A DNA stretch of 32,000 bases, taken from Candidatus Electrothrix sp. GW3-4. Its GTDB lineage: Bacteria > Desulfobacterota > Desulfobulbia > Desulfobulbales > Desulfobulbaceae. Positions 4,228-23,266 of this stretch are shown in pieces. The notes beneath the pieces were generated by a model. That model did not search any database and had not been told where the DNA came from. It worked only from the letters and a program-made list of their open reading frames with translations. Each line of letters begins with the position of its first letter. Position 1 is the stretch's first letter. The stretch lies in NCBI RefSeq assembly GCF_037902255.1, contig NZ_CP147990.1:210001-242000 (forward strand), in the 5' to 3' direction. Made by a program: the position numbers and the translations under genes.

Positions 4228-4461
4228 CCGTTTTCTCCTGTTTGCTGGAATGAATGTGTAATTATTTTGGCATAATAGTCTAAGGTGGGTGGCAGGTCAA
4301 GTGGATGGCAGTCTTTCTTTTAGGGGATTTTTTTTGCCGGATTATTCTTGAAATGAGACCTCTCATTAAGAGGTGATATAGTATCTTTAAGTGTAATTTT
4401 ATATTGTCTATAGCTAATATATTATCTTTTATTTTATCTCGTTGTCGGTTAAAATAACGAC

Positions 4462-5295: not shown

Positions 5296-5448
5296 CTGTG
5301 ACGAATCGTTGCACTAGGGTGCAACGGTCAGTTCCACTATAGTGCAAGGACGAGTTCCACTAGGGTGCAACGGTCGGTTCCACTAGAGTGTAACGATGAG
5401 TTCTACTATAGTGCAATGACAGGTTGCACTCCAGTGTGACTGTATTTT
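5296..5448. repeat. Tandem array of 23-bp units (6 full units plus a half unit), iteron-like
   Basis: Units start at 5311, 5334, 5357, 5380, 5403 and 5426. The consensus is CCACTAnrGTGCAAnGrnnrGTT. The cores CACTATAGTG (perfect palindrome) and CACTAGGGTG alternate. The array sits between two convergent gene ends. Confidence 0.85.
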
Positions 5449-5471: not shown

Positions 5472-7610
5472 CTACGCCCCCCGCCGCTTGGCCCGCACCC
5501 GTTCCAATCCTTCACGCCATGTCTCCAAAGAAGGATGCCCCATAGCCTCTGCAATCTCCACGGCTTGGCTGATGTATTGCTCGGCTTGGGCAAGGTCACC
5601 TTGCTCTTCGTAAATCATACCGATGTTCCAGCTCGTGATTGCTTCTCCTGCCTTGTTACCGAGATCTTGGTGTATGCTCAGGCTCTGCTTCAGGTAGGTC
5701 AAGGCCGTGGCATAGTCACCCTGTGGCTGGTAAACTTGGCTGATACAGTTCAGCGTTGCTCCTTCCCCGTATCTGTTTCTGATCTCCCGTTGTATGGTCA
5801 GACTTTGCTCCAGATAGGCCAGTGCTGCAGCATAGTTGCCAAGTATCCTATGGATGTTGCCGATGTTGCTCAATGCACAGTCTTCCCCTGCCCGGTCGCC
5901 AATCTGCCGCTGTATAGTCAGGCTTTGCTCCGCATAATTCAATGCCGTGGCATAGTCGCCCTGTAGCTGGTAAATCAAGCTGATACTGTTCAACGTTGCT
6001 CCTTCCCCATATCTGTTTCTGATCTCCCGTTGTATGGTCAGGCTTTGCTCCAGATAGGCCAGTGCTGCAGCATAGTCGCCAAGTACCCTATGGATGTTGC
6101 CGATGTTATTCAACGCACAGTCTTCTCCAGCCTTATTTCCGATTTCCCGACAGATGATCAGATGTTGTTCATACAAGGGGAGGGCGGCGGTATAATTTCC
6201 CTGTGTCTGATAAATCTGGCCGATGTTGTTTAATGCTGTCCCTTCGCCTGGTTTGTTGCCGATCTCACGGTATATGCTCAAACTTTGCTCCAGATACTTC
6301 AGGGCATTAGCGGAGTCGCCTCGTACCCTGTAAATCTGACTGATATTGTTTAATGCTGTTCCTTCTTCGTCCCTGCCATCAATCTCACGACATATCGTCA
6401 GACTCTGCTCATATAGGTGCAGAGCGGCGGCATAATCACCCTGTGCCTCATAAATTTGACCGATGTTGCCCAGCGCAATCCCTTCTCCTTTTTTATCGCT
6501 GATCTCCCGACGTATAGTCAAGCTCTGCTCTAAATAGGTCAGGGCAGTGGTGTAGTCGCTCCATGCCTTGTAAATCTGACTGATATTATTCAGTGTTGAA
6601 CCTTCTCCTTCCCGGTCGCCGATCTCTCGGCTTATGGTCAGGCTCTGCTCAAGATACTTCAGGGCGATGGCATAATCGCACCGTGCATGGTAAAGCGCAC
6701 CGATATTGCCCAAGGTTGTGCCCTCTCCTGCCCGGTTGCCGATCTCACGTTGTATCTTCAGGCTTTGCTCCAGATAGGTCAAGGCAGCAGTATAATCACC
6801 CTTGGCATATGCAATCGTGGCAAAGTTGTTTAGGATTGTCGCTTCACCTGCCCGGTCGCAGATCTCCCGGCGTATCATCAGGCTTTGCTCCCATAAGGGC
6901 AGGGCACCACTATAGCGGGCAACACGATGAAGGTCATAGCCAGCCTCGTTCAGATGATCTGCCCGCTTCTTTTTTTTGTCTTCTGGTAGCAGCGCGGCGG
7001 CCTTCTGCCAGTATTCAGAAGCCTTGGCATAGCGCAACTGTATACGCTGGAGGTGGGCTTGGTCGGCATTGGTTTCCGCAGCAGAGATGCGCCGTTTCCG
7101 GGTGATTTTCTCCTGTTCCTCAATAGCTTGGAGGTCGCGGGCTTCAGCCTGATTTTGCAGCTCCTCAGCCTTGGCGTAGTCACCAAGCTCAATTGCCTGC
7201 CGTGCTTCTTCCTTCAGTCGTACCACCTGCGAGTCTTCGGACTGCACTGTCTCCAAGCGAAGGAGCAGTTCTTTATAATGCCCGGCTACCTCCCTCAGTT
7301 TGCAATCCAAGCCGCTGCGTGGAACCTGCTGTTCTTCCAATACCCGGAAAAAGCTACTTAGGGCGGCATCAGTAACTGCGAGATCGCCTGCATAGCGAGC
7401 AAAGACTTCCGGTGATATGCCGTAGTTATTGACCTGCTTACCGATGGCCCCTTCGCCTTCAGCAATGTTTATATCTCCATTGCCGCTGTGGGGGTAGACA
7501 CTGCCCTGAACATCACCGCCAACCGTTACGCCTCCTTCACCGGCGACTGTACTGCCGTTCTGCGTTATTGTCCCGGAGCCGCTGTTCTCATCACTTTTCC
7601 TCTTCTTCAT
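5472..7610 (-). CDS. TPR-repeat protein (about 12 x 40-aa TPR_12-like units) with an N-terminal Gly/Asn/Asp-rich motif and a coiled-coil linker; putative sensor partner of 7591-8028
   Basis: Repeating units of the form NNIGxIYxxxGDYxxALxYLEQSLxIxREIGxxxGE are read directly. N-terminal residues 26-61 are GGVTVGGDVQGSVYPHSGNGDINIAEGEGAIGKQVN. No canonical Walker A was found. Confidence 0.9.
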   Translation of the reverse strand: MKKRKSDENSGSGTITQNGSTVAGEGGVTVGGDVQGSVYPHSGNGDINIAEGEGAIGKQVNNYGISPEVFARYAGDLAVTDAALSSFFRVLEEQQVPRSGLDCKLREVAGHYKELLLRLETVQSEDSQVVRLKEEARQAIELGDYAKAEELQNQAEARDLQAIEEQEKITRKRRISAAETNADQAHLQRIQLRYAKASEYWQKAAALLPEDKKKKRADHLNEAGYDLHRVARYSGALPLWEQSLMIRREICDRAGEATILNNFATIAYAKGDYTAALTYLEQSLKIQREIGNRAGEGTTLGNIGALYHARCDYAIALKYLEQSLTISREIGDREGEGSTLNNISQIYKAWSDYTTALTYLEQSLTIRREISDKKGEGIALGNIGQIYEAQGDYAAALHLYEQSLTICREIDGRDEEGTALNNISQIYRVRGDSANALKYLEQSLSIYREIGNKPGEGTALNNIGQIYQTQGNYTAALPLYEQHLIICREIGNKAGEDCALNNIGNIHRVLGDYAAALAYLEQSLTIQREIRNRYGEGATLNSISLIYQLQGDYATALNYAEQSLTIQRQIGDRAGEDCALSNIGNIHRILGNYAAALAYLEQSLTIQREIRNRYGEGATLNCISQVYQPQGDYATALTYLKQSLSIHQDLGNKAGEAITSWNIGMIYEEQGDLAQAEQYISQAVEIAEAMGHPSLETWREGLERVRAKRRGA

Positions 7611-8248: not shown

Positions 8249-8803
8249 ATGAAAAAAGACAAGAAGAGGAGATCAAAGCCGGTTGAACTGCTGAGAGCGG
8301 TCTACAGTGCCGCAATGCTCTTCTGCATCCCCGGACTTATTATTACCTTTATCTCACCGACGTTCATCATCAAGTTTGACCGCATCAATCAGGAGCGTGT
8401 CGATGCGACCGTCACCCGACAGCTCCTCTTTCTTATTCCGGCCTTTAAGGAGACAGCTGTGGATATCCGGGACATGAAGTCGGAAACGATGCACGGCAAG
8501 GCCATCCGTGAAGGCAGCAGAACAACAGGCAGGATTGTCGGCAATGCAGAGGACGAAGGTGTCCTTCAGCTGAACAGTCGGTCAGGGGCACCTGTATCCC
8601 TGTCTGTCTCTCCGGTAAACCTTGATGATATTGAGGAAGAGATCAGTTCCTTTATCAATGAAAGCAAGGAGCCGTCCCAGCACTTGTGGGTGACGTCCAA
8701 CTGGAAGTTCGGTGTGCTGTTGCCCGGTGCAATCCTGCTGTTCAGTCTGATAGTCTTTATTATGGCCGTCCGGTCGATCCTTACCGGCAAGACGTTGGAG
8801 TGA
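8249..8803 (+). CDS. Bitopic membrane protein (N- and C-terminal TM helices, central soluble domain), unknown family; paralogue of 29145-29675
   Basis: I chose the start at ATG 8249 (MKKDKKRRSK), which parallels MKKGSKKESR of the paralogue. The TM segments are AAMLFCIPGLIITFISPTFII and FGVLLPGAILLFSLIVFIMAV. Confidence 0.65.
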   Translation: MKKDKKRRSKPVELLRAVYSAAMLFCIPGLIITFISPTFIIKFDRINQERVDATVTRQLLFLIPAFKETAVDIRDMKSETMHGKAIREGSRTTGRIVGNAEDEGVLQLNSRSGAPVSLSVSPVNLDDIEEEISSFINESKEPSQHLWVTSNWKFGVLLPGAILLFSLIVFIMAVRSILTGKTLE

Positions 8804-8849
8804 AGCCATACCTCCCCTATCTTCTGCAACCTTCTTTGAATAAATTCCC

Positions 8850-11693
8850 GTGACCTCCGAACCCAAATACATCTCCGTGCGCGGCGCACGGATGCACAAC
8901 CTGAAGAACATCTCCGTCGATCTGCCCCGCAATCAGCTGGTGGTCTTCACCGGCCTGTCCGGCTCCGGCAAATCCACCCTAGCCTTTGACACCCTCTATG
9001 CCGAGGGCCAGCGCCGCTACGTGGAATCCCTGTCCACCTATGCCCGCCAGTTTCTCGGGCAGATGGACAAGCCGGACGTGGATCTGCTGGAGGGCCTGTC
9101 GCCAGCGGTCTCCATTGAGCAGAAGACCACCTCGAAGAATCCGCGTTCCACGGTGGGCACGGTGACCGAGATCTACGATCATCTCCGCCTCCTCTTTGCC
9201 CGGGCCGGTCAGCCCCATTGCCCCAAATGCGGGGAGGCCATCAGTTCTCAGTCCATTGAGGACATGGTCAATACTCTGCTGAATCGTTCTGAGGAGGCGG
9301 AACGACCGGAGAAGGTCATCCTGCTCTCTCCGCTGGTGGTTCGCAAAAAGGGCAGTCACGAGCAGATCCTTCAGGAGCTGCGCAAGGACGGCTATGTCCG
9401 GGTGCGGGTGGACGGCGAAGTTCGTGCCCTGAGCGAGGAGGTCAAACTGAACAAGAATACCTTTCATTCCATTGAGGTAGTGGTGGATCGAGTGGTGCTC
9501 AAGCCGGGCATTCGGCGACGGCTGGATGAATCGGTGTCCACGGCAGTGGGCCTGAGTGAGGGTACCATGCTGGTCCAGTTCCCGGACAGCGGCGAGGAGG
9601 TGCTCTTTTCTGAATCAGCGGCCTGTCATGCCTGCGGCATCTCTGTGCAGGAGCTCTCCACCCAGCTCTTTTCCTTTAATAATCCCCAAGGGGCCTGCCC
9701 GGAATGTAGCGGTCTGGGCGTGAAGCAGGTCTTTGCCGAGCAGCTCATCGTGCCTGACCCGCGCCTCCCGCTGGATCAGGGGGCCATTGCCCCGTGGTCG
9801 CGGCGCAAGCTGGCCACCCATAATGCCCAGTGGATACAGGCCCTGGCCAGCCATTACGGTTTTGATCCGGCAATGCCCTTTCACAAGCTCTCGGACGAAG
9901 TCAAGCAGGCTTTGCTCTACGGTACCGGTCAGCAGCGCATCGAGTTCCGCTACAGCCGGGGCAACCGACGCCTGGTTTCTCAGATTCCCTTTGAGGGCAT
10001 TATCCCCCGCATGGACCGCCTGTTCCGGGAGACCAGTTCTTCAAGGGTGCGGGAGGAGACCGCCCGTTTTATGAAGGAGCAGCCCTGCCCGGTCTGTCAT
10101 GGCGACCGGCTCAAGCCCGAGGCCCTGGCGGTGCGGGTCGGGGGGCGCAGTATTATTGATCTCACCCGGATGTCCATTGATCACCTGATTGCAGAGCTGC
10201 ACGGCATGACCTTCAGCGGGCATTATCAGATGATTGCCGAACCCGTACTCAAGGAAGTGCAGGAGCGGCTGGGCTTCCTGCACGGAGTGGGCCTGGGCTA
10301 TCTTTCTCTGGAGCGCAAGGCGGGCACACTGTCCGGCGGCGAGGCCCAGCGGATCAGGCTGGCCTCCCAGATCGGTTCCCGGCTGGCAGGGGTTCTTTAT
10401 ATTCTGGATGAACCCAGCATCGGTCTCCATCAGCGCGATAATAATAAGCTGATCAAGACCCTGTTGAGCCTCCGTGATCTGGGCAATACGGTCATCGTGG
10501 TGGAGCACGACACTGACACCATTGCAGCGGCGGATCATATCCTGGATATCGGCCCCGGTGCCGGGGTGCATGGCGGCGAGATCCTCTACTCCGGCCCGGT
10601 CCCGGGCCTGCTGGATTGCCCGGACTCCCTGACCGGCGGCTATCTCTCCGGCAGGCTGTCCATCGCCATTCCCAAGAAACGGCGCAAGATACGCAAGGGA
10701 GCCAAGTACGGCCTGACCGTCAAGGGCGCGACCGTCAATAATCTTTGTGATATGACCGTCCGCTTTCCTCTGGGCGTGATGACCTGCGTCACCGGGGTGT
10801 CCGGCTCGGGCAAGAGTTCCCTGGTCATGGAGACCCTGTATAATGAGGCCCACGCCGTGCTTCAGGATGGCGACAGGCCCGGACTGCTGCACGGGCTGGA
10901 GCAGCTGGATAAGGTCATTGATATTGACCAGAGTCCCATCGGGCGGACACCGCGCTCCAATCCGGCCACCTATACCGGGGTGCTCACGCCAATCCGGGAG
11001 CTGCTGGCCCGCCTGCCTGAGTCCAGGGCACGGGGCTATAAGCTGGGGCGTTTCAGCTTCAACATCAAGGGCGGTCGTTGTGAAGCCTGTGAGGGCGACG
11101 GGGTGCTGCGTATCGCCATGCACTTCCTGCCGGATATCTACGTCACCTGCGAGACCTGTCAGGGCAGACGCTATAACCGGGAGACTCTGGAGATCAAGTA
11201 TCGGGGCAAGAATATCGCCGACATCCTGGAAATGACCGTGGAAGAGGCCCTGGACTTTTTCCAGAATATCCCGCCCATCAAGAACCGGCTCCAGACCGTG
11301 CTGGATGTGGGGCTGGGCTACATCACCCTGGGCCAGTCCTCAGTGACCCTGTCCGGGGGCGAGGCCCAGCGGGTCAAGCTGGCCCGTGAGTTGAGCAAAC
11401 GTTCCACCGGTCAGACCCTGTACATCCTGGACGAACCCACCACCGGCCTGCATCCGGCGGATATCCAGCACCTGCTGCTGGTGCTCAACCGACTGGTGGA
11501 CAGCGGTAATACCGTGGTGGTGATTGAGCATAATCTGGATGTGATCAAGACGGCGGATCATATTATTGATATCGGCCCGGAAGGTGGGGATGGGGGCGGG
11601 CAGGTGGTGGCCTGCGGTACGCCGGAGGAAGTGGCGGAGGTGCCGGAGTCGTTTACCGGGCGGTTTTTGCGGCAGGTTTTGGGGGAGGGGTAG
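8850..11693 (+). CDS. uvrA: Excinuclease ABC subunit A (UvrA)
   Basis: The 947-aa product has two ABC ATPase modules ([28 protein letters not shown] and [10 protein letters not shown]), zinc-finger Cys clusters and LSGGE signatures. Start codon is GTG. Confidence 0.97.
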
Positions 11694-12956: not shown

Positions 12957-13295
12957 GTTATCTCCTCCAGAAATATGTAATAAGAAAATTTGTTGTGTAT
13001 CTTGAGAATACAGCCCGGAAGGATAGCTTGTCAAATAGAGACCTGAATTGAGCGATTCTGTATACAGGTAACCAAGTATCCTTTTAATATAATAAGATAT
13101 TTGACAGATTCTTTTTTGACCCATTGGGTTAAGAGTTGTCTTGGGAGAATTTATGGAGTTACAGTAAGTTGCTTCATTTTTCAAAAAGAATCACTCAATT
13201 TAGGAGAGAGTAAATATTTCCATACGATATTCTGCCAGCTTAACAACGCACAGAACACAGCCCCTCTTTCCCATCCCCCTCCTCCACAACGTTCT

Positions 13296-13389
13296 CCCCA
13301 AGGGGCGCAAGGCAATCCCCTCGTGACGCAGGATGATCCCCAAGGGGCGCAAGGCAATCCCCTCGTGACGCACGATAATCCCCAAGGGG
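13296..13389 (+). repeat. 42-bp tandem repeat array 1 (2 full units plus the start of a third)
   Basis: Units start at 13296, 13338 and 13380. The unit is CCCCAAGGGGCGCAAGGCAATCCCCTCGTGACGCAsGATrAT. Confidence 0.9.
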
Positions 13390-13447
13390 AGGAACTTCCA
13401 CCCCTTCCGCACACCTTACCGGAACCTGCCTGCTGATTGCGTTCGGT
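13386..13447 (+). repeat. 62-bp element, copy 1 (direct repeat of 14123-14184)
   Basis: GGGGAGGAACTTCCACCCCTTCCGCACACCTTACCGGAACCTGCCTGCTGATTGCGTTCGGT differs from copy 2 at 4 positions. Confidence 0.85.
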
Positions 13448-13594
13448 TTTCCGGTAAGCAGTTGTCTCCCGCTGAACATCATATCCCACCATAATCCACA
13501 AGCAAGCAAAACAGAAAAAAACTTGACGAGACAAGCTGTTCTGTCTACCCTGATTGTATGAACAGGCAGAGGAAAATGACGGAGTCGGGTAGAT

Positions 13595-13867
13595 ATGCAT
13601 TTTGAGTGGGATCCGAACAAGGCAAGAATAAACCGGCGCAAACATGGTGTTACATTCGAGGAAGCATCCAGCGCCCTGCGTGATTCCTTTTCAGCGACTG
13701 CGTATGACCCTGACCATTCAGAAAATGAAGATCGCTTTGTGACTTTCGGCATGTCCTCAAAAGGCCGCCTGCTTACAGTGGCACACACAGAAAGAGGCAA
13801 TGCGATTCGCATTATATCGGCACGCCCGGCAACAAATTCGGAGAGGATAATTTATGAAGAAGGCTGA
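13595..13867 (+). CDS. brnT: BrnT-family (DUF497) toxin
   Basis: FEWDPNKARINRRKHGVTFEEA....IRIISARPATNSERIIYEE matches the BrnT/DUF497 pattern known to me. Confidence 0.85.
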   Translation: MHFEWDPNKARINRRKHGVTFEEASSALRDSFSATAYDPDHSENEDRFVTFGMSSKGRLLTVAHTERGNAIRIISARPATNSERIIYEEG

Positions 13868-14099
13868 ATCAGAGAAAGCGGATGAACTCCGACCCGAATA
13901 CAAGAGATCGGATTTTGGAAAAATTGTGCGTGGTAAATATGCGGACCGTATTAAAGAGGAATCCAACATTGTCCTTCTGGATCCCGATATTGCCCAAGCT
14001 TTTCCCAATGATAAAGCTGTGAATAATGCGCTTCGCTCTCTGCTGGAACTGGCAGCGGCATCAACCCGCTTGGTAAAGCATTCCAAGGTGCAGCAGTGA
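13854..14099 (+). CDS. Putative cognate antitoxin of BrnT (small protein in the BrnA position)
   Basis: The gene overlaps the brnT 3' end by 14 nt. It encodes 81 aa (EYKRSDFGKIVRGKYADRI...VLLDPDIAQAFPNDKAVNNALRSLL). The exact family was not identified. Confidence 0.6.
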   Translation: MKKAESEKADELRPEYKRSDFGKIVRGKYADRIKEESNIVLLDPDIAQAFPNDKAVNNALRSLLELAAASTRLVKHSKVQQ

Positions 14100-14122
14100 C
14101 AGGGGGCACGTTCATCTTCCGT

Positions 14123-14184
14123 GGGGAGGAACTTCCACCCCTTCCTCACACCTTACTGGAACCTGCCTGTTGATTGCGTTTGGT
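14123..14184 (+). repeat. 62-bp element, copy 2 (direct repeat of 13386-13447)
   Basis: GGGGAGGAACTTCCACCCCTTCCTCACACCTTACTGGAACCTGCCTGTTGATTGCGTTTGGT, read directly. Confidence 0.85.
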
Positions 14185-14265
14185 CTCCCTTGCTGAGCCA
14201 GGTATCCCTTGGTATAATTACACATTCCGATCTACTTATTTTTCCATAGCTTGAGGAGGATTCCC

Positions 14266-14499
14266 ATGACACTTACCGAGGTTATACCGCTTATTGATGC
14301 GCTTCCCCGCGTAGACAAGTTTGAACTGATGCGATTTATTTTGTCAAAGCTCTCAAAGGAAGAAGACACGGCTTCAATACCTCATGGTGCGCCTGCTGCG
14401 CAAAAGAAGAATGCCCTGCTGGATATTGTGGGAATGGCGGAGGGGGAGGAGGACGACGTTGCTCGGCAGCACGATAAATACCTGTACGGTGCGAAGTGA
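14266..14499 (+). CDS. Small antitoxin-like protein (VapB position)
   Basis: GAGGAGGA SD lies 5 nt before ATG 14266, which I preferred over TTG 14251. The 77-aa product has an acidic tail. Its stop overlaps the ATG of a PIN-domain remnant (TGATG). Confidence 0.5.
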   Translation: MTLTEVIPLIDALPRVDKFELMRFILSKLSKEEDTASIPHGAPAAQKKNALLDIVGMAEGEEDDVARQHDKYLYGAK

Positions 14500-14588
14500 T
14501 GGAGCGGGGCTTGCGTGAGTACAACATTCAGTACGCGTTTGCCTTTGACGAGCATTTCCGGCAGGCAGGGTTTCTGTTAAGGCCGTAG
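14499..14588 (+). pseudogene. vapC: VapC/PIN-domain toxin, C-terminal 29-codon remnant
   Basis: MERGLREYNIQYAFAFDEHFRQAGFLLRP* resembles the conserved PIN C-terminus (..FxFDxHFxQxGF..L) that carries the last acidic residue. The N-terminal ~100 aa are absent. Confidence 0.45.
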
Positions 14589-14602
14589 CAGGCAACGTTC
14601 AA

Positions 14603-14809
14603 ATGAGTGAAAGCATTATCAAGGAAGTACGCAGAGTACGCGAACAACATGCAGCCAGCATGGGCTATGATTTGGATCGGATTTATGACGCCCTGAAAGC
14701 CGGAGAGAGAAAGCATGCGGCGGAAGGATGGGCGGTTGTACCTCCACCGTCCGTACCGCCGCAGGAGCCTGATTTGGCATTACAGCGGACCCGCTTTGCT
14801 TGTCGATAA
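14603..14809 (+). CDS. Small hypothetical protein (68 aa)
   Basis: The ORF starts with ATG. The N-terminal half is helical (SESIIKEVRRVREQHAASMGYDLDRIYDALK). No family was recognised. Confidence 0.45.
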   Translation: MSESIIKEVRRVREQHAASMGYDLDRIYDALKAGERKHAAEGWAVVPPPSVPPQEPDLALQRTRFACR

Positions 14810-14937
14810 TCAGACGGGCAAGCGTCCTGATGTACTGCGCGAAGTGTTCAGATAATTTCGTGATGAGGCAGTGAGTGAACGGAGCGGTATGGCTTTATGA
14901 TTCTTGCAATTATGAGGACAAACCTGGAGGAATAATC

Positions 14938-15279
14938 ATGCGTGCTCTTACCTTGGCAGTCTCCTCCTGCGAAGAGACGAACCGACGTTTTCTTCAGGCA
15001 TTTGAGGGAAAGCCACATAGAAACCTGCTCATCTTCGAGTCTCCCTCCCTCCTTTTTACGCTGCTGACTGCCGAGCGATGGGATCTGCTGAAAATGATGA
15101 CCGGTGCCGGAGCAATAACGGTACGGGAAGCGGCGGAAAGGGTGGAGAAGGACATCCGGGCTGTGCAGGATGATGTGGACGCGCTGTTACAGGCGGGTAT
15201 TCTCCAGAAAAATGACAACGATGAGATAGAGTTCCCCTTTGACGCCGTGCATGTGGATTTTATGCTCAAGGCTGCGTAA
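14938..15279 (+). CDS. Winged-HTH DNA-binding protein of the antitoxin-type family (MarR-like); no recognisable partner toxin
   Basis: GGAGGA SD lies 7 nt before ATG 14938. The sequence is LLTAERWDLLKMMTGAGAITVREAAERVEKDIRAVQDDVDALLQAGIL. Confidence 0.6.
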   Translation: MRALTLAVSSCEETNRRFLQAFEGKPHRNLLIFESPSLLFTLLTAERWDLLKMMTGAGAITVREAAERVEKDIRAVQDDVDALLQAGILQKNDNDEIEFPFDAVHVDFMLKAA

Positions 15280-15341
15280 AAGGAGCAACCATGTTTTTGG
15301 CGAGGGTGCGCGTGGGAAGGAGATTTAACTTTATGCGTTTT

Positions 15342-15860
15342 TCATTCAATGTGTTTTCCAAGGTCGTTACGTGCGCACTTTAGAACCTCGGAGTAAGCAA
15401 ATGCCACTGCTTCGGATAAATTCCCAAGGCTGGGTTCGTTACGTGCGAAAAGTCTGACTTCATCAAGCTTTTTTGCTTCTCCAATTTTCATTTCCATTCC
15501 GAGGAACAGAGACATCTCAGCATTAAGTTTTTCGGATACACTGTTAATTTCTGCTCTTACATTTGAGGAACATACAATGGTTAATGATGTCATCCATGCT
15601 TGCGCCTCACTGATATCCTGAAACCATTGAGGCAAGTGTTCTTTCGATATGAAGGTGATACCATCTGCCGTGATCTGGGAACGACGGTTCAACACCTTCA
15701 GTAAATAACGAAGTGTGTTGGAGTATGCCTCCTCTTTTTTTGATAGCCGCCATTTCTTGTGGTCTCTTTTGGATTGCATTGTTTGTCCGATAATCGTCCC
15801 GATCATTCCTGCTATCGCTCCAATGCCTGCGCCAATTAATCCAGCTACTGCGGAGTCCAT
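15342..15860 (-). CDS. Hypothetical protein with an N-terminal glycine-zipper TM helix
   Basis: MDSAVAGLIGAGIGAIAGMIGTIIG is followed by a ~140-aa helical domain. Its GC content looks lower than that of its neighbours. Confidence 0.6.
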   Translation of the reverse strand: MDSAVAGLIGAGIGAIAGMIGTIIGQTMQSKRDHKKWRLSKKEEAYSNTLRYLLKVLNRRSQITADGITFISKEHLPQWFQDISEAQAWMTSLTIVCSSNVRAEINSVSEKLNAEMSLFLGMEMKIGEAKKLDEVRLFARNEPSLGNLSEAVAFAYSEVLKCARNDLGKHIE

Positions 15861-16077
15861 ATTCTACCTTAATTTGCAAAATACATGGTAACAAACTCTA
15901 GTGCCTATCCATAATTCCAGTGTTTCTACAGCATCATACTGTAATCGCCCTCTCGTTTATCTGCAAGCAATTTAACTGAGTTGTACCGGCGAGTTTTGCT
16001 GAAGACGAGCCGATAAAAAAGATACGGAACCTCGGAAAACAGGTACCCCTCCTCATCCCTCTGCTCCGAGGCGTTCT

Positions 16078-16310
16078 CCCCAAGGGGCGAAGGATAATCC
16101 CCCTCTGACGCATGATGATCCCCAAGGGGCGAAGGGCAATCCCCCTGTGACGGACAATAATCCCCAAGGGGCGGAAGGCAATCCCCTTGTGACGCACGAT
16201 AATCCCCAAAGGGCGAAGGCTAATCCCCCTGTGACGCATGATGATCCCCAAGGGGCGAAGAGATATCCCCTCGTGACGCATGATGATCCCCAAGGGGTGA
16301 GAGGCTATAC
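16078..16310 (+). repeat. 42-bp tandem repeat array 2 (5 full units plus a degenerate sixth)
   Basis: Units start at 16078, 16120, 16162, 16204, 16246 and 16288, an exact 42-bp register. The unit and orientation match array 1. The ~35-bp 5' flank is also homologous to that of array 1. Confidence 0.9.
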
Positions 16311-16461
16311 GATACCAATACGGACCATTTTTACCCAAAATACGGGCAATTCCCCATGCAGGGTTATCGAATTTACTCAGAAATAGTGCTTTTTCGGCAT
16401 CATCGGTAAACCTCTATCATTTCCATTGCCCGCGAACAAGTTGGAAGCACTTAGTTTTTTC

Positions 16462-16490
16462 TTGACAGGAAAGGGATGTAAAAATATCCT
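16462..16490 (+). promoter_or_regulatory. Sigma-70-like promoter (TTGACA-17 nt-TATCCT) upstream of pseudogene 16527-16846
   Basis: The hexamers and 17-nt spacer are read directly. There is no experimental support. Confidence 0.35.
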
Positions 16491-16526
16491 GTTCTTATTC
16501 TTTAAAAATTTTGCAAGGAGAACTGT

Positions 16527-16846
16527 CTGCCTGAACAAACCTTGATTGAGCAGCTTGCGGTAGTACTGAACGTAGACGTTGTATCTCCGATGGAGGGTGC
16601 TGAAGCCCAGGCCCTCCACAAGGCGTTACCCGGTTATCAGGCTGTTGCCGACGAAGCAGCTCGTTTTATTCAGGAGCATGGAGAAGCCCTTCATCTGGAG
16701 GTCTCGGTCCTTGCTAATCTTATCGTATCCGTAACTTTGCTGAGGCCTATCCAGAGGTTGCCGAGGAAGGAAAATTCCTCCTTGATTTTATGAAGACCTT
16801 TAAGCTGGCAAGGGAAAAGGAGAAGAAGAGCGATGGGGAAAAGTAA
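16527..16846 (+). pseudogene. Decayed paralogue of gene 30416-30874 (start codon lost, internal deletion with frameshift)
   Basis: LPEQTLIEQLAVVLNVDVVSPMEGAEAQALHKALPGYQAVADE aligns with MPEERVTIEQVAELLDVNLTPPLDPSDVQALHKALPGYQAMVDD, with CTG in place of ATG. About 41 codons are then missing. The C-terminal part SYRIRNFAEAYPEVAEEGKFLLDFMKTF continues in another frame and aligns with SSRRIREFKNAYPEIRSQAQYLFDFLKAF. Confidence 0.7.
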
Positions 16847-16996
16847 GGCAAAAGGAATATTCTGCAACGAGGAGATGATGCCCGATTCAGAATCATACGT
16901 CCTGTACGTTTTTTTGGGTTGAGGGTGTATTGTCTGAAAAGTATCACTTCAAGACTTAGCAGCTTTTGACAACTTTTGACAACAAAGGAGTTCACA

Positions 16997-18190
16997 ATGA
17001 AATGCACCATAAAATTTGGCTTCATTATTGTCTTATTCATTTTCTTCTCTAGCATTGTTGTATTAAAAGCATCCCACGCCGCCGAGCCTACGATATTGGC
17101 TGCCTATCAGGCTTGGTTCGGTTTACCCTCCCATCTGCCAGTCTATAATTCCTGTGATCCCGACTTGCTGGCTCAGCAAATTCAAAAAGCCAAAGACATG
17201 GGCATTGATGGCTTTGTCGTGGACTGGTACGGTCCTCAGGCCGGGGTGATCAATGATACAGACAGGGAATTTATAGATCAGGCAACTGCCGTACTTATCG
17301 AGCAGGCAGAGGCAGATAATTTTAAGATTGCCTTGATGTATGATGAAGGGGCCGTTGCCCAGGCTGGCTTGGATGATGAACGCTCTATGGGCCAGGTGCA
17401 GGCTGATCTGGTCTATGCCAAGAAGTATTTTTCTTCCCCTGCTTATCTACACATTCATGGCTATCCTGCTCTGTTTGTCTTTTCCTATGATGAGGTTGAC
17501 CAATATCTTGACTGGGAAACCCTGCGTAGCGAGTTGGGCACGCAACTTACCCTGATCGATAATGATCCCAACCCTGCTGCGCAAGAACGTGATGATATAT
17601 TTGATGGCTTCTATGCCTGGGTGCAGGCCGACTGGCGTCCCAAAGGGAAAGACTGGGGCAAAGGCTATCTGGATTGGTTTTATGGGCAGATGAAAGAGGG
17701 GCGTTATGCCGATAAAATCATGATTGGGGGTGTTTGGCCGGGGTTTGATGACCTGCTTGCCTTCTGGGGTAAGCGTCGTTTTATTCCCCGCCAAAACGGA
17801 CAGGTTTATGCCAAGACCATGGACCTTGCCCAGCAGCATGACGCTGCCATTATTCTCTTAGAAACCTGGAATGATTTTGAGGAAGGGACAGATATCGAAT
17901 TCGGCAGAGACATGATTGTTGATATGGAAGCAGATTATCCAGACTTGCTCGTCAGGTCTTCACCGATTACAGTTGAGTGGGACCCTGCGAGGGGAGAGCT
18001 TGCCGTGCAGGTTTATAAAAATGGAAGATTGATCTATGATCAGCGAAAATCATCAGGCGTTTCCCTCGCCCTTAAACCCAAAGGTGAATATGAGTTGAAG
18101 CTGTGGACATCTGGAACAGATACCCTCTCTCAATGGATAAAAATTCGCAGGAAGGATTTGGAAAAAAGACGTAACAGGACAAGAGGCTGA
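16997..18190 (+). CDS. Secreted putative glycoside hydrolase (GH99/GH71-like TIM-barrel family, tentative)
   Basis: AAGGAG SD lies 6 nt before ATG 16997. The signal peptide is MKCTIKFGFIIVLFIFFSSIVVLKASHA. The motifs GIDGFVVDWYGP and LLETWNDFEEGTDIE resemble endo-mannosidase-like hydrolases. The product call is tentative. Confidence 0.6.
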   Translation: MKCTIKFGFIIVLFIFFSSIVVLKASHAAEPTILAAYQAWFGLPSHLPVYNSCDPDLLAQQIQKAKDMGIDGFVVDWYGPQAGVINDTDREFIDQATAVLIEQAEADNFKIALMYDEGAVAQAGLDDERSMGQVQADLVYAKKYFSSPAYLHIHGYPALFVFSYDEVDQYLDWETLRSELGTQLTLIDNDPNPAAQERDDIFDGFYAWVQADWRPKGKDWGKGYLDWFYGQMKEGRYADKIMIGGVWPGFDDLLAFWGKRRFIPRQNGQVYAKTMDLAQQHDAAIILLETWNDFEEGTDIEFGRDMIVDMEADYPDLLVRSSPITVEWDPARGELAVQVYKNGRLIYDQRKSSGVSLALKPKGEYELKLWTSGTDTLSQWIKIRRKDLEKRRNRTRG

Positions 18191-18220
18191 CGTTGAATTC
18201 TATAAAAAGGAGCAAAGATA

Positions 18221-18442
18221 ATGATCACTACACAAATTCTTGGAGAAATTCATCAGCGACTGCACAGGATTCGGGAAATTTCCGTTGAAATTGAAGAGGT
18301 GCCCAATCTTCTGCCAGATCTTTGGACAATGAAAAAGATCGATAAAAAATGTCAGGAAATTCAAACGCACTGTGATTGGATTGGCTCGCATCTCGGGACT
18401 GGTTCTGGCTGCTCTTCCAGTGGCAGCGGATGGAATGATTAA
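18221..18442 (+). CDS. Small hypothetical protein (73 aa) with a Gly/Ser/Cys-rich tail
   Basis: AGGAG lies 8 nt before ATG 18221. No family was recognised. Confidence 0.4.
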   Translation: MITTQILGEIHQRLHRIREISVEIEEVPNLLPDLWTMKKIDKKCQEIQTHCDWIGSHLGTGSGCSSSGSGWND

Positions 18443-18557
18443 TATATCAGTAGCAAGAGAAGAAACAGGAAGAACGATATCTCGGCAGCTTCAGAGATAA
18501 TAGGACGCTCTACTGCTCTAGAGCGGCAACATCGCCAGTCCAACAAATATCAGGCTC

Positions 18558-19778
18558 ATGCATCTCAAACTCGCCTACCGAAATATTACGGCCTATAAAA
18601 AACGCAGCATCATCACCCTGCTGCTGACCACGGTCACCACTGCCCTGCTGATCTTTGCTACGGCCTGGATGGATGGTTCCCACAAGACGATCCTCAATAA
18701 TGCCGTAGAGGTCTATCCGGGCTATCTCCAGATAACCGGCAAGGACTTCCGGGATACGCCCAGTTTTGATAATCTGATCTTTGATGCCCAGGCGGTCCAT
18801 GATAAGCTTGCCCAACAAGAGGGCATTGCCGCCTTTGGGGCCCGCTTTGAGTCCTTTGTCCTTTATTCAGTAGGAGACAAGGCCGTGGGCGGTATGCTCA
18901 CCGCTATTGAACCGGAAAAGGAGGCCCAGCTCTCCCGCTTGGCTGATTCCCTGGTTAAGGGAGCGTATCTCCAGGCTGGAGATGGCAATAAGGTCTATAT
19001 CGGCAAGGAACTGGCCCGTCGCCTTAAGGTGGATGTGGGCGACACAGTCACCTTTGTCGGCAGCGGGGCTGATTGGTCCTTTGCTGCGGATAACCTCCAG
19101 ATCAAGGGGATCTTTCAGACAGGCCTGTTTGAATTCGATGCCTCTGCTGCCTTTCTGGCCAAGGGCTATTTTGATCAGATCATGGCCTCGACCAATTATG
19201 CCACCCATTTTATTGTTCTTCCCAAGCAAACGGACCAGGCGGAGCCGTTAGCTGCCAGCATCGGCGCAGAGCTGGGGCCGGAATATGAGGTCGCGAGCTG
19301 GAATCAGATCATGGCGGCCTTAGTCACGGCTATGGAGCTGGACTCGGTCTTCGGCTATATCACCCTGGGGATCATCTTTACGGTGATCTTCTTCGTTATC
19401 ATGATCTATACCTTCCTGGCCGTGTTTGCCCGCATTCGTGAGCTGGGGATCTTGCGAGCTATTGGCACCAAACCCAGTGAGATTTTTATCATGCTTCTCC
19501 TGGAGTCCTGCCTGCTGGCCCTGGTCAGTGTACTGCTCGGTGGCTTGATCGGAGGGGGCATAGCCTGGTATTTTGAGGTCAACCCAATCGTCTTTGCCAG
19601 CTTTGAAGAGCAGTTCAAACAGTACGGCATGGCTTCCTCTGCTATGCCCACTGCCTTTGCGCCCCTGGTTATCCTTCGGGACATGGTCGTGATCTTTGTC
19701 CTTTCGGTGCTTTCCACCCTCTATCCCATTCTCAAAGCCAACCGGATGCAACCTGTGGAGGCCATGCACCATGTTTAG
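18558..19778 (+). CDS. ABC transporter permease, FtsX/MacB/LolCE-type
   Basis: The N-terminus is LKLAYRNITAYKKRSIITLL. There is a large periplasmic loop and a C-terminal FtsX-type 3-TM bundle containing RELGILRAIGTKPSEIF. Confidence 0.9.
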   Translation: MHLKLAYRNITAYKKRSIITLLLTTVTTALLIFATAWMDGSHKTILNNAVEVYPGYLQITGKDFRDTPSFDNLIFDAQAVHDKLAQQEGIAAFGARFESFVLYSVGDKAVGGMLTAIEPEKEAQLSRLADSLVKGAYLQAGDGNKVYIGKELARRLKVDVGDTVTFVGSGADWSFAADNLQIKGIFQTGLFEFDASAAFLAKGYFDQIMASTNYATHFIVLPKQTDQAEPLAASIGAELGPEYEVASWNQIMAALVTAMELDSVFGYITLGIIFTVIFFVIMIYTFLAVFARIRELGILRAIGTKPSEIFIMLLLESCLLALVSVLLGGLIGGGIAWYFEVNPIVFASFEEQFKQYGMASSAMPTAFAPLVILRDMVVIFVLSVLSTLYPILKANRMQPVEAMHHV

Positions 19779-20994
19779 CCTGATCCTGAAAATCGCCCGT
19801 GCCTCTCTGGCCCGTCGTGGCTTGCGTTCTCTCTTGGTTGTTCTGATGATTGCCATCAGTCTCTGGGGCCTACTGCTCATGGAAGGGGTCTATGAAGGCA
19901 TGATAGAGCAGATGATTAATAATGCCATCCGCAGCGACAGCGGCCATCTCTCCTTTTTTGCCAAGGGGTACCGCTCAGATCCGGATCTTGCTCTCTTGGT
20001 AGATAAGGTCCCGGCCATCCGGGCTGCCCTGGAGCAGGATCAGCGGCTGCGAAGCTTTGCCCTACGCCTCAAGCAAGATGGCCTGGCAGCAACGGCCCAT
20101 GCCTCACGGGGGGCGGCGATTATCGGTATGGATCTGGAAAAGGAAGAACAGCACGGCCGATTGGCGGAATATCTTTACAAGGGAGAATTCAGCTTTGGTA
20201 AACAAGATAAGGGGATTATTCTTGGCTTTAAGCTGGCTGATACCCTGCGGGTGCGTATTGGCAGCAAGATCATTCTCTCGGCCCAGGACCTGCATGCGGA
20301 GGTCGCCTCTGCCGCCTTCCGGGTGACCGGTATCCTCAAGACCAATAATATGGGCCTGGATGAACGGGCGGTCTTTATTGATCTGGACAGGATGCGCAAG
20401 ATGCTGAGTGTACCGGAAGGCGTAAGTCAGGTTGCGGTGATTGTTCATGACCAGGATCAGCTTGCTGAGGTGCAGGAAGACCTGCATAGCCAATTTCCTG
20501 ATCTGGATATCCTGCGCTGGGACGAGCTCTATCCGGCCCTGATGCAGTCCAAGGTGATCATGAACGGCTTTAATATGGTGATCAGCGGGATGATCTTCTG
20601 TGTGGCAGCCCTGGGGATTTTTGGCGTAATGCTGGTCTCCGTCCTGGAGAGGATTAGGGAATTCGGGATCATGCTGGCCATCGGGACCCGCTTCGGGCTG
20701 ATCCGCAATATCGTTCTGGCTGAGTCTTTCTTTCTCGGCCTGATCGGCTTTCTCTTTGGCAGCCTGATCGGGGGACTCTCTCTCTATTATTTTAAGATTT
20801 ATGGCCTGGATCTCAGCGCCTTCAGCGATGCCTTTGATGAATTTGGCATGGATGCCGTGACCTATGCCATCATCCGTCCGAGTTATTTTCTCACTGCCTT
20901 TGTTGCGGTGCTGCTGGCCACCTTTTTCAGTGTGCTGATTCCTTTGCGGGTATTGAAGAAGTCCAATCCTATTGAGGCGATTAATAAGGTGTGA
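19771..20994 (+). CDS. ABC transporter permease, FtsX/MacB/LolCE-type (second copy)
   Basis: I chose ATG 19771, which overlaps the upstream stop by 8 nt. The sequence has MFSLILKIARASLARRGLRS... and REFGIMLAIGTRFGLI. Confidence 0.9.
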   Translation: MFSLILKIARASLARRGLRSLLVVLMIAISLWGLLLMEGVYEGMIEQMINNAIRSDSGHLSFFAKGYRSDPDLALLVDKVPAIRAALEQDQRLRSFALRLKQDGLAATAHASRGAAIIGMDLEKEEQHGRLAEYLYKGEFSFGKQDKGIILGFKLADTLRVRIGSKIILSAQDLHAEVASAAFRVTGILKTNNMGLDERAVFIDLDRMRKMLSVPEGVSQVAVIVHDQDQLAEVQEDLHSQFPDLDILRWDELYPALMQSKVIMNGFNMVISGMIFCVAALGIFGVMLVSVLERIREFGIMLAIGTRFGLIRNIVLAESFFLGLIGFLFGSLIGGLSLYYFKIYGLDLSAFSDAFDEFGMDAVTYAIIRPSYFLTAFVAVLLATFFSVLIPLRVLKKSNPIEAINKV

Positions 20995-21057
20995 GGCACT
21001 CAAAGGATACGAAGAGAAAAGTATAGAGACGATACGTCTTATCGACAGGAGAGCACT

Positions 21058-21591
21058 ATGCCGAATACAGCCTATTTGGAGCATTATACAGCGGATGATT
21101 ATGCCCGGTGGGAGGGTGATTGGGAATTGATCTACGGTGCGCCGTATGCCATGTCGCCGTCCCCTTCCATCTCTCACCAGCGCGTGGCGAAGCGACTCCT
21201 TGTGCTGCTGGATGCACAGTTGCAGGACTGCCCTTTATGTGAGGTGCTCAGCGAGGTGGACTGGCATTGTGCCGATGACATCATCGTTCGACCGGATATT
21301 GTGGCGGTTTGTGAGGTTGAAGGGGAACAGCTTGTTCAGACTCCTGAGCTGATTATTGAAGTTGTTTCTCCGTCCACGGTTAAGCGGGATGAGCAGATAA
21401 AATTTGCGTTGTATCAGGGGAAAGGGGTGAAAAACTATATCTTGGTTTATCCGCAGGAGCGGAAGATCGTCATCTATCAGTTAACTGGTGGGCGGTATCG
21501 CAAGGTTGGGGACGATAAAATGGAGTCTTTTGATTTCAGGGTGAAAGATTGTGCTGTTAGGCTTGAATTTGAGCGGGTTTGGCGGGTGTGA
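21058..21591 (+). CDS. Uma2-family (DUF820) putative endonuclease
   Basis: AGGAGA SD is present. YTADDYARWEGDWELIYG..., PDIVAV and PELIIEVVSPST..D...K...Y match the Uma2 PD-(D/E)XK pattern. Confidence 0.85.
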   Translation: MPNTAYLEHYTADDYARWEGDWELIYGAPYAMSPSPSISHQRVAKRLLVLLDAQLQDCPLCEVLSEVDWHCADDIIVRPDIVAVCEVEGEQLVQTPELIIEVVSPSTVKRDEQIKFALYQGKGVKNYILVYPQERKIVIYQLTGGRYRKVGDDKMESFDFRVKDCAVRLEFERVWRV

Positions 21592-21720
21592 AATAGAGTG
21601 AGCGTGACCTCAAACTCTGTCCCTGTAAAGTTACTACAAACCATGAGTCATGCTAACAACTTGTTAAATTTTAAGAATCAGCATTATTTTTTATTAGAAG
21701 CAAAACAGTAGGTATGCATA

Positions 21721-22788
21721 ATGACCAAAAGATATATCACTGCTCAGAATGTTTCTGTAGGTAAACAAATTGCCCCCATAAAAATGGTTTATCTTTTTTC
21801 TGCTGATGAATATGAAGAATTTATTGAAGAATGGATAGATACAAAGAAAGATAAATATATAAGGACTGAAAAAAATGCAGGTGCTGGTGATATGGGTAGA
21901 GATATTATTGCTTATATTGAAGACCCTAAAAGTAATCCAGAAAAATACAAATGGGATTGTTATCAGTGCAAACATTACAGTAACCCCCTAGTACCAAGTA
22001 ATATTTGGGTAGAATTCGGAAAAATTCTTTTCTATACATTTAAAAAAGAATATCCAGTCCCTGAAAAATATTACTTTGTCCCCCCGAAAGGTGTTGGTAC
22101 GGCATTATCAGCCCTTCTTAGCAATACATCAAAACTAAAAGTAGAATTGCAAAAAAATTGGGATAAACATTGTAAATACAAAATTACAAAAACTAAAGAT
22201 ATTAAATTGTCTGGAGAATTTTTAAATTATTTTAACAAATTTGATTTTTCAATTTTTGATAAAATTCCCCCAAAGAAAGTAATTGAACAGCATGCAAAAC
22301 ATGAAAATCACCTGTTACGGTTTGGGGGTGGTCTCCCCGAAAGAAAGGTTATCGAAGAAATTCCCAAAGTTGATACAGATAAGGAATTAAGATATATCAA
22401 ACAGCTAACTTTGGCCTACAATTCTGATAGTCAAGATGACATTAAAACAGTTAACGATATAGAAATATATAACAAATATAAGCAACATTTTCACAGGGCA
22501 AGAAAGAGCTTCTATCATGCGGAAGAATTAAGAATTTTCACAAGAGATAACTTGCCAGCTCAAGTTTTTGATGATTTTCAAGAGGAAGTCTTTCAAAGTG
22601 TTGCAAATACGGCAGAAGATGACTTCGAAAATGCCTTTACCAAGGTTAAAACAGTTGAAAACCAAGCAGTAAAAACTCCCATAGAGTCGAACCCACTTAG
22701 AGAAGTATGCAACACTATAGACAAAAAAGGTATATGTCATCAATTGGTTAATAAAGAAATAATTTCATGGATCAACGATAATGAATAA
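21721..22788 (+). CDS. lmuA: Lamassu/ABC-3C effector (LmuA-like): N-terminal Mrr-like PD-(D/E)XK nuclease domain plus a helical C-terminal domain
   Basis: The gene is AT-rich. EEFIEEWI...GAGDMGRDIIAY...KWDCYQCKHY fits the E..D..QxK restriction-endonuclease-fold motif order. It is the first gene of a three-gene overlapping operon that ends in an SMC-like ATPase. Confidence 0.7.
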   Translation: MTKRYITAQNVSVGKQIAPIKMVYLFSADEYEEFIEEWIDTKKDKYIRTEKNAGAGDMGRDIIAYIEDPKSNPEKYKWDCYQCKHYSNPLVPSNIWVEFGKILFYTFKKEYPVPEKYYFVPPKGVGTALSALLSNTSKLKVELQKNWDKHCKYKITKTKDIKLSGEFLNYFNKFDFSIFDKIPPKKVIEQHAKHENHLLRFGGGLPERKVIEEIPKVDTDKELRYIKQLTLAYNSDSQDDIKTVNDIEIYNKYKQHFHRARKSFYHAEELRIFTRDNLPAQVFDDFQEEVFQSVANTAEDDFENAFTKVKTVENQAVKTPIESNPLREVCNTIDKKGICHQLVNKEIISWINDNE

Positions 22789-23266
22789 TAAAATCCATAT
22801 TTTTAATAACGAAATTGAAATAGGGCTAAGAATATTAATAATTTTAAATACCGTTTACCCGCGATCTTTAGATGTTGAACTCCTTAATTACTATGATTAT
22901 TTTTCACTTCATACAGCTGACATTGGAGGTGAAGAAAGTCTTCACCCTCCAGTGCCAAATCGTTTTGGAGAATTATCAGTAAAACGAGAAATACTACAAA
23001 GGAGCTTGGAATTTTTACTTCTTAAAGGATTAATAAATCAATCTTTCACTGAAAATGGGGTAGAATTTATAGCAAGTGAAACAACTTCACCATTTATTGA
23101 TACATTGAACGAAGAATACACATTAAATTTATTAGAAAAAGCAAAATGGGTTTCTGATAAATTCAAGAATTATTCCCCCGAAAAGATAAGAAAGTATATC
23201 AATGTTAATCAAGAAAGATGGGGAAGTGAAATCTCATTTTGTAGCATAGGATGCACAAATGAATGA
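22781..23266 (+). CDS. lmuC: Lamassu/ABC-3C middle component (LmuC-like)
   Basis: The gene overlaps both neighbours by 8 nt (ATGAATAA and ATGAATGA). The 161-aa product contains LDVELLNYYDYFSLHTADIGGEESLHPPVPNRFGELSVKREIL, typical of the middle-component family as I recall it. Confidence 0.65.
   Translation: MNNKIHIFNNEIEIGLRILIILNTVYPRSLDVELLNYYDYFSLHTADIGGEESLHPPVPNRFGELSVKREILQRSLEFLLLKGLINQSFTENGVEFIASETTSPFIDTLNEEYTLNLLEKAKWVSDKFKNYSPEKIRKYINVNQERWGSEISFCSIGCTNE

Follow-up and report, generated by a model that had tools for sequence, protein, structure and literature searches.

The 32,000-nucleotide stretch analysed here (hereafter the window) comes from Candidatus Electrothrix sp. GW3-4 (contig NZ_CP147990.1, positions 210,001 to 242,000) and carries two arrays of a 42-bp tandem repeat, between which lies a patch of toxin-antitoxin (TA) genes and toxin remnants (Table 1). 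A preliminary description of this DNA had reported both arrays in an exact 42-bp register, and this was borne out by three methods. Tandem Repeats Finder detected period-42 arrays at 13295-13391 (2.3 copies, 94% matches, score 166) and at 16077-16297 (5.3 copies, 86% matches, score 305), with a weaker period-21 row in each of them. When the window was scanned with the unit pattern CCCCAAGGGG-N9-ATCCCC-N3-TGACG, allowing up to 3 mismatches, 7 matches were obtained, all on the + strand and all within the two arrays, and 100 shuffled sequences gave none. Furthermore, a profile hidden Markov model (HMM) built from 52 units of many loci recovered 7 full units and two partial ones, and nothing else in the 32 kb.

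The units in the window differ from one another by substitutions only, never by insertions or deletions, and the positions left as n in the earlier consensus correspond to such substitutions. That consensus was correct and could be refined, as the 42-mer proved to consist of two 21-bp halves related to each other, the half-units A (ATCCCCAAGGGGCGnAGGGCA) and B (ATCCCCyTGTGACGCAnGAnn). Array 1 indeed consists of two 42-bp units, but the sequence from 13380 onward, which had been taken for a degenerate third unit, is the start of a separate element (D2, described below); the tail of array 2 has no relation to D2. The homologous 5' flank noted for the two arrays was also recovered by a repeat search, and the same leader occurs in other genomes. 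Its common form, ..CGGAAAACAG..CCCCTCyTTCTC ATCCCCCTGCTCCGAGACGTT CT, was observed at both window arrays and at four loci elsewhere (L001, L019, L020, and L023; loci outside the window are given as L numbers).

Table 1 Features of the two arrays and of the DNA between them (positions are those of the window).
Feature	Positions	Strand	Remarks
Array 1 leader	13248-13295	+	degenerate units (..GCACAGAACACAGCCCCTCTTTCCC ATCCCCCTCCTCCACAACGTT CT); homologous to the array 2 leader
Array 1	13296-13379	+	two full 42-bp units, each an A and a B half-unit
D2 tail element	13380-13475	+	degenerate terminal unit as predicted hairpin 1 (13384-13406), then predicted hairpin 2 (13415-13458)
Promoter module (putative)	13476-13594	+	TTGACG (13523-13528), 17-nt spacer, TACCCT; boxes found by eye, not called by the promoter scanner
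brnT, brnA	13595-14099	+	type II TA operon; brnT 13595-13867 (Pfam 2e-28), brnA 13854-14099
D2'	14117-14189	+	second copy of the tail element, without units; hairpin 1 kept, hairpin 2 truncated
Decayed vapBC cassette	14251-14589	+	antitoxin ORF82 (14251-14499) intact, 77% identical to the L019 antitoxin
PIN toxin remnant	14499-14589	+	29 codons; ATGA overlap with the ORF82 stop; internally deleted
ORF68 and HTH gene	14603-15279	+	ORF68 14603-14809; HVO_A0114-family helix-turn-helix (HTH) gene 14938-15279
Gly-rich membrane-like ORF	15342-15860	-	172 aa; no Pfam match; divergent from array 2
Array 2 leader	15983-16077	+	..GTACCGGCGAG..CCGATAAAAAAGATACGGAACCTCGGAAAACAGGTACCCCTCCTC ATCCCTCTGCTCCGAGGCGTT CT; common to L019, L001, and L020
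Array 2	16078-16308	+	five full 42-bp units (16078-16287) and a partial sixth ending after ATCCCCAAGGGG

The anatomy of the family was compared over about 24 arrays. Their size ranged from 1 to more than 17 half-units, or from 1 to at least 8.5 units of 42 bp, with a length reaching at least 380 bp. Most arrays alternate A and B and so have the 42-bp period; two of them (L012 and L016) are almost pure B arrays with a 21-bp period, and because such arrays exist, B is considered to be the basic unit and A+B a higher-order repeat. The units abut directly, and the unique spacers that mark a CRISPR (clustered regularly interspaced short palindromic repeats) array were found between none of them. 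At both edges of an array, leader and tail, the units become progressively degenerate, and the end point nearly always falls after ATCCCC plus 2-6 nt. The arrangement of leader L1, (AB)n, and D2 was common to window array 1, L001, L019, and L020, and other arrays had different leaders and tails; among the tails, class T2 was present in L014, L017, and L018 and class T3 in L014 and L021, and further classes exist. Within the half-unit, 13 of the 21 columns were at least 92% conserved (ATCCCC, then G-K-G-R-C-G), and columns 7, 15, 17, 20, and 21 were near saturation (1.0-1.8 bits).

Several other elements were seen beside family arrays. T2 (..CCCCTTGGGGATAGGGCTTCGGGGGAAGGGCG..GGCAAGCGGGAATGCGGGGTGCTTCGGGTGAAG..; for example, L017 2352-2442) is itself a recurrent intergenic element of L012, L014, L017, and L018, which lies 3' of arrays in marine Electrothrix-type contigs and is also present without arrays. 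A short family array in L017 is directly followed, at 4125-4325, by a tandem repeat of another 21-bp unit (AGCGAGTACCATACTAATGGAAC; at least 9 copies, up to the contig end). At L001, whose array lies in a junkyard of IS200, IS5, and IS701 insertion sequences (IS), the array upstream of a brnTA paralogue is interrupted, within one of its repeat units, by an IS701-family element of about 1 kb (8725-9728), which is bounded by 11-bp terminal inverted repeats (CTTCTACTTTG/CAAAGTAGAAG) and whose transposase is truncated.

Subsequently, the distribution of the family is considered. A scan of one genome per species (185,579 species) with the exact pattern found it only in the Desulfobulbaceae metagenome-assembled genome (MAG) S24.Bin023, on four contigs, and a scan of a metagenome collection gave five more contigs with the unit. 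Open reading frames (ORFs) derived from arrays came, as far as their sources were named, only from Candidatus Electrothrix sp. AW5, Candidatus Electrothrix scaldis (E. scaldis), AS4_5, and LOE2. The uvrA gene of the window showed nucleotide identity of 93% to its E. scaldis counterpart (CP138355.1) and 91% to the one in S24.Bin023, and several public assemblies encode a BrnT protein identical to that of the window. No family match was found among plasmids (72,556), phages, or viral contigs, and Rfam gave no relevant match in gathering or E-value mode. In the publications found on repeats or TA systems of cable bacteria, the element was not described; only unspecified "genomic repeats" are mentioned (Sereika et al. 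2023). The repeat family had not been recognised in the preliminary description, and all of these searches agree with that. As far as they reach, sequence comparison places the family in cable bacteria and close relatives alone. The loci collected from species genomes and metagenomes show a dispersed repeat that adjoins many TA cassettes. The short-read contig L004 is 100% identical to window 13343-23867 and therefore breaks inside array 1; both it and L007 (window 13343 onward, from the same strain) are short-read contigs that start there. The repeat causes assembly breaks and is probably under-represented in MAGs.

The substitutions had been said to show no third-position bias, and a non-coding role was accordingly proposed; both statements held. 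Column entropy by codon position was 0.64, 0.47, and 0.65 bits (Kruskal p = 0.51, 118 distinct half-units), and the four-fold degenerate third bases of conserved codons were near-fixed (CCC 66/66, ACG 64/65, GTG 60/64). A coding repeat, or the remnant of one, with the heptads NPxVTxD / DPQGAxG might be considered: the period is divisible by 3, no stop codon interrupts one + frame (..DPQGAKGNPLVTHD..) or any of the three - frames in any array, and a mild 3-periodicity is visible in the raw substitution counts (p = 5e-5). However, the + frame favoured by this periodicity, which has the highest "synonymous" fraction, contains stop codons; for this reason, and because the entropy is flat, the periodicity is attributed to where a few hypervariable columns fall by chance. 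Neither a start codon nor a ribosome-binding site accompanies the open + frame, whose first candidate start in array 2 is a GTG inside unit 2. When the translated arrays were compared with 5.8 billion proteins, only 2 (+ frame) and 6 (- frame) short hypothetical ORFs were obtained, none of them with another domain, and no protein family in the database carries the repeat. We regard a coding origin as close to untenable.

Next, we examined whether the arrays fold. As RNA, array 2 folded no better than its dinucleotide shuffles (z = +1.50 for the + strand and +0.33 for the - strand), and as single-stranded DNA (ssDNA), single units, three-unit stretches, and the pure-B array of L012 gave z-scores of -0.7 to +2.3. 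The presumed stem CAAGGGG/CCCCyTG contained an A.C mismatch in 59% of B half-units and its 5' arm was invariant; with C opposite the invariant AA of CAAGGGG in that 59%, the stem shows no covariation. In the pure-B arrays (L012 and L016), there is no GGGG arm to pair. The earlier view of a conserved stem with a variable loop was consequently abandoned, and the z-scores, the mismatch pattern, and the pure-B arrays together rule out an RNA or ssDNA stem-loop element. A sponge for CsrA was rejected by eye, as only 1 of 6 loops carried GGA, and the 16-17-nt loops between C4/G4 tracts spaced every 21 nt make a G-quadruplex or i-motif unlikely.

Of the structural or binding role that had been preferred to coding, the dismissal of coding stood, the stem did not, and conservation of a duplex motif speaks for binding as a rival explanation. 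Judging from the alignment, conservation acts at the level of a double-stranded motif. The near-invariant core ATCCCC-N2-GKGRCG beside saturated columns suggests a constraint on such a motif too, which would most simply be a candidate binding site every two helical turns. According to this explanation, a trans-acting factor would read the core every 21 bp, and the arrays would serve as upstream regulatory or insulator arrays for TA and defence promoters or as iteron- or centromere-like sites. The main argument for it is that the bipartite core is near-invariant across genomes while adjacent columns are saturated. The strict 21/42-bp period without insertions or deletions also fits, as does the avoidance of self-structure (z up to +2.3), which is expected of a duplex site. 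The genes around the arrays bear on this explanation too and are described below.

The tail element D2, which is 67-96 nt long, was the sole part with significant predicted structure (ssDNA z = -2.8). The arms of its hairpin 2 are CTTACCGGAA/TTCCGGTAAG (10 bp). RNAalifold predicted this 10-bp hairpin, yet none of 15 pairs showed a compensatory change, and the D2 hairpins are a plausible but unproven prediction. D2 occurs in other genomes, and D2' in the window (14123-14189) was 91% identical to D2 and was also matched by the profile HMM. The block of D2 and the promoter module (13402-13564) was 86% identical to L013 5833-5991, which lies upstream of an unrelated UPF0175/DUF3368 TA operon. From this identity, the block appears to behave as a portable promoter module common to unrelated TA operons (brnTA and UPF0175/DUF3368). 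No promoter-like site was found by the promoter scanner upstream of or within the arrays.

All arrays were intergenic. In about half of the independent loci, at least one of the two genes closest to the array was a type II TA component: brnTA in the window, L001, L018, and L021; vapBC in L012, L014, L017, and L019; higBA in L017; parDE in L021; and UPF0175/DUF3368 in L022/L023. The association with TA genes noted for the window is real and recurs in other genomes. Arrays lay 15-230 nt upstream of a TA start or promoter, co-oriented with the TA genes in the window, L001, L019, L020, and L022/23 and divergent from or convergent with them in L012, L014, L017, L018, and L021. Neighbours other than TA genes were nadD (L009), CcbP/LRR-Roc (L011), an ABC ATPase gene (L015), a NACHT gene (L016), and an unknown gene (L010).

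In the window, the patch between the arrays was as described before, with one intact TA operon, one decayed vapBC, an HTH gene, and small unknown ORFs. The PIN remnant consists of the first codons of the toxin gene fused to residues 109-133 and was 88% identical to that stretch of the intact L019 toxin. The ORF68/HTH pair was also present 3' of an array and D2 in E. scaldis (L020), with 91% nucleotide identity. The two arrays had been described as bracketing this patch. The bracketing does not amount to a special composite, as the repeat is dispersed beside many cassettes; in L017, a 4.3-kb metagenomic contig, four successive TA modules are each separated by array segments, of which there are five. 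The window arrays are not a dedicated bracket but two family members that happen to flank a run of cassettes. On the leader side of the E. scaldis array (L020 10632-12265), genes for a ParA-like CbiA ATPase and a HEPN (RiboL-PSP) protein replace the beta-propeller gene of the window.

Three further features were observed elsewhere in the window. Just downstream of a hipA-like remnant, six tandem 23-bp imperfect palindromes (TTGCAC-N4-GTGCAA) at 5297-5437 look like an operator or iteron array. At 5699-6787, there are 240-bp and 120-bp tandem repeats (73-90% matches), which probably lie within a coding region of the TPR (tetratricopeptide repeat) type. At 22000-25000, the GC content falls to 0.31, as against about 0.5 elsewhere, and in the identical contig L004 the genes downstream of the low-GC stretch encode CTD6/MC2 conflict-system domains; this stretch is probably a horizontally acquired island.

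The position of array 1 recalls a type III TA locus. In toxIN, 36-nt repeats precede toxN. The arrays could likewise be transcribed, either as the precursor of a ToxI-like antitoxin or as a protein-sponging small RNA for the adjacent toxins. At array 1, L019, L020, and L022/23, repeats of about 40 nt are followed by a GC-rich hairpin (D2) and a co-oriented toxin operon, and the two systems share tandem direct repeats of about 36-45 nt beside a toxin gene with a hairpin between them at some loci. In contrast to ToxI, however, the orientation of the family arrays toward the TA genes is inconsistent, being divergent or convergent at five of the loci above (L012, L014, L017, L018, L021). There is no promoter-like site upstream of or in the arrays, and a separate putative promoter lies between D2 and the TA genes. 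The arrays have no stable or covarying RNA fold and no Rfam match, and the adjacent toxins are BrnT, PIN, HigB-like, and ParE-like proteins, unlike those of the ToxN, AbiQ, CptN, and TenpN type. We give an RNA element little credence.

The same neighbourhoods bear on the proposed binding sites. The location of arrays 15-230 nt upstream of promoters, in either orientation, would suit such sites, and the gene for the ParA-like ATPase is divergent from the leader in E. scaldis. On the other hand, L020 was the only locus with a ParA-like neighbour, and no candidate binding protein recurred near the arrays at the loci examined. The neighbouring TA families differ (ribbon-helix-helix (RHH), HTH, and Phd antitoxins), so that a site common to all of them cannot be ascribed to the repressors of these TA systems themselves. 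The number of half-units (1 to more than 17) does not obviously depend on which gene lies beside the array, and arrays also follow housekeeping genes. The 21-bp phasing resembles that of plasmid iterons and centromeres (sopC- or parC-like), but the family is dispersed and not confined to one locus per replicon. We consider binding sites of this kind a minority possibility, rather improbable yet to be reckoned with. A related proposal is that the 21-bp units are the cis-sites of a cable-bacteria-specific trans-acting system, other than an integron, which would co-regulate or shuffle TA and defence cassettes; in its co-regulation form, it may silence or insulate many cassettes in multicellular filaments. 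This proposal appears unlikely to us.

Unit numbers at syntenic loci were then compared, as had been suggested. At the uvrA-linked locus, there were 0 units in L002 and L003, about 1 in L013, 2 in the window, about 4.5 in E. scaldis (L020), and at least 8.5 in L010 (S24.Bin023, at a contig end); these counts differ between species, which were compared here in place of strains of one species. Array positions also overlapped with synteny breakpoints. L018 and L021 were 98.8% identical over 1525 bp and then diverged after ATCCCCCTG of the third half-unit. In L014, an L017-like segment was joined to an L012-like segment at the array. L022 and L023 had the array and the right flank in common and diverged leftward from the first leader unit. 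Compared with L002/L003, the window contains an 830-bp insertion (14106-14937) that starts at D2' as its 5' edge, and compared with the closed E. scaldis genome, brnTA and the vapBC remnant are inserted directly after D2. Since these breakpoints fall at differing positions, they point to homology-driven or illegitimate rather than site-specific exchange.

The breakpoints thereby bear on another explanation, in which arrays and D2 would be the site-specific recombination sites of an integron-like cassette system. As in chromosomal integrons, small TA cassettes that carry their own promoters are kept apart by a recurring element, and genomes differ in whether a given cassette is present at these junctions; D2 is also predicted to form hairpins. 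The attC site is an imperfect palindrome of 57-141 bp with R''/L''-L'/R' boxes. The arrays, by contrast, are direct repeats that lack this palindromic architecture (as judged from their anatomy), fold worse than shuffles, and attain the length of at least 380 bp given above. The crossover point is not fixed, with breakpoints inside units, in the leader, and at the 5' and 3' edges of D2. No integrase or recombinase gene was found in the window or the 20-kb loci, and no intI among their ORFs and annotations; the transposases at L001 are ordinary IS200, IS701, and IS5 enzymes. We give this explanation scarcely any credence.

Taken together, these findings lead us to favour, with slightly better than even confidence, the reading that the two arrays are copies of a cable-bacteria-restricted, non-coding, DNA-level interspersed minisatellite that offers portable homology through which cassettes are shuffled. 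The family probably originated from the D2 spacer found with small TA cassettes, the hairpin-bearing 5' part of which would have been duplicated in tandem. Array length would then change by slipped-strand mispairing or unequal crossing-over. Because near-identical copies adjoin many small cassettes, the arrays and D2 would act as portable homology, and RecA-type recombination between arrays or D2 copies could insert, delete, or swap TA and defence cassettes. The two window arrays, having the same orientation, could in this way delete the 2.7-kb patch between them. In the D2 subfamily, a portable sigma70-type promoter after D2 would drive whichever TA operon lies 3' of it.

Several points weigh against this minisatellite reading. 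About half of the loci have no TA neighbour, and the enrichment for TA genes is an apparent one, drawn from the loci examined. Recombination was inferred from the comparison of genomes, and copy number was likewise counted over those loci. Short-read metagenomic contigs, which may be chimeric at repeats, underlie several of the mosaic comparisons; the comparisons made with closed or long assemblies (L001, L002, and L020) are free of this problem. Finally, a purely neutral minisatellite does not account for the conservation of particular positions within the units, which indicates an extra constraint. The binding sites considered above could accordingly hold in addition to the minisatellite account.

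Cable bacteria, which live as multicellular filaments that conduct electricity, have not been cultured, and repeats break up the assemblies of their genomes. The family explains some of the contig breaks, namely those of the two short-read contigs of the same strain that end inside array 1. It also provides ready-made variable number tandem repeat (VNTR) markers for strain typing in sediments. Furthermore, the repeats mark junctions of TA and defence cassette exchange near uvrA and elsewhere, which gives a handle on genome diversification. If the core is a protein-binding site, a common layer of control or mobilisation would extend over many unrelated TA systems.

Among known systems, the family shares with interspersed minisatellites of the mycobacterial interspersed repetitive unit (MIRU) and VNTR type the presence of head-to-tail units at several intergenic loci per genome, because the window has two arrays, one MAG has four contigs with the unit, and L017 has five segments. 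It also shares a unit number that differs, here at the species level, between genomes at one locus. In the MIRU, VNTR loci of Mycobacterium tuberculosis, small ORFs run across the stop and start codons of the adjoining genes of an operon. Both families have units of 40-100 bp in multiples of 3, dispersed between genes, with copy-number differences at individual loci. However, the arrays described here lie tens to hundreds of nucleotides from the flanking stops and starts, mostly upstream of promoters and not inside operons.

BOX elements of Streptococcus pneumoniae are lineage-specific, dispersed, and intergenic, with the structure boxA-boxB(n)-boxC. The family is likewise modular, with internal tandem units of about 45 bp in variable number, and it has distinct 5' and 3' modules, of which leader L1 and D2 recur together at window array 1, L001, L019, and L020 and others take their place elsewhere. 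The two are unrelated in sequence; BOX folds stably, whereas the arrays do not (z +0.3 to +2.3), and in the family the 3' modules are heterogeneous (D2, T2, T3, and others) and the link to TA cassettes is strong.

BrickBuilt of Porphyromonas gingivalis is a species-restricted minisatellite of about 22 bp borne on a MITE (miniature inverted-repeat transposable element), with leader and tail subunits; it is always intergenic, tens to hundreds of nucleotides from genes, and has small terminal inverted repeats and internal promoter activity (PMC4596501). The family resembles it in its restricted host range, spacerless tandem units of about 21-22 bp, leader and tail, and intergenic location, but neither terminal inverted repeats nor promoter-like sites were found in the arrays. 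A search for MITE ends gave no inverted repeat between leader and tail, and related loci differed in one flank only, so that no empty site could be defined.

The neisserial dRS3 repeats and intergenic mosaic elements (NIME), as well as repetitive extragenic palindromes (REP) and bacterial interspersed mosaic elements (BIME), are likewise short repeats at boundaries of variable regions that serve as junctions for recombination and rearrangement. Those repeats alternate in orientation or enclose variable segments, whereas the family is arranged head-to-tail; D2, for its part, is a REP-like hairpin element by prediction. No transposase of the REP-associated tyrosine transposase (RAYT) type was found. 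The Y1 transposase beside the L001 array scored as an ordinary IS200 TnpA (144 bits, against 25 with the REP-associated model), and a link to REP/RAYT was rejected on this basis.

The readings as type III antitoxin RNA, integron attC, CRISPR, iteron or centromere, and coding repeat each fail the defining features that were tested. The most economical account is that of a previously undescribed, lineage-specific interspersed minisatellite whose behaviour is comparable to that of BOX, MIRU, BrickBuilt, and dRS3/NIME.

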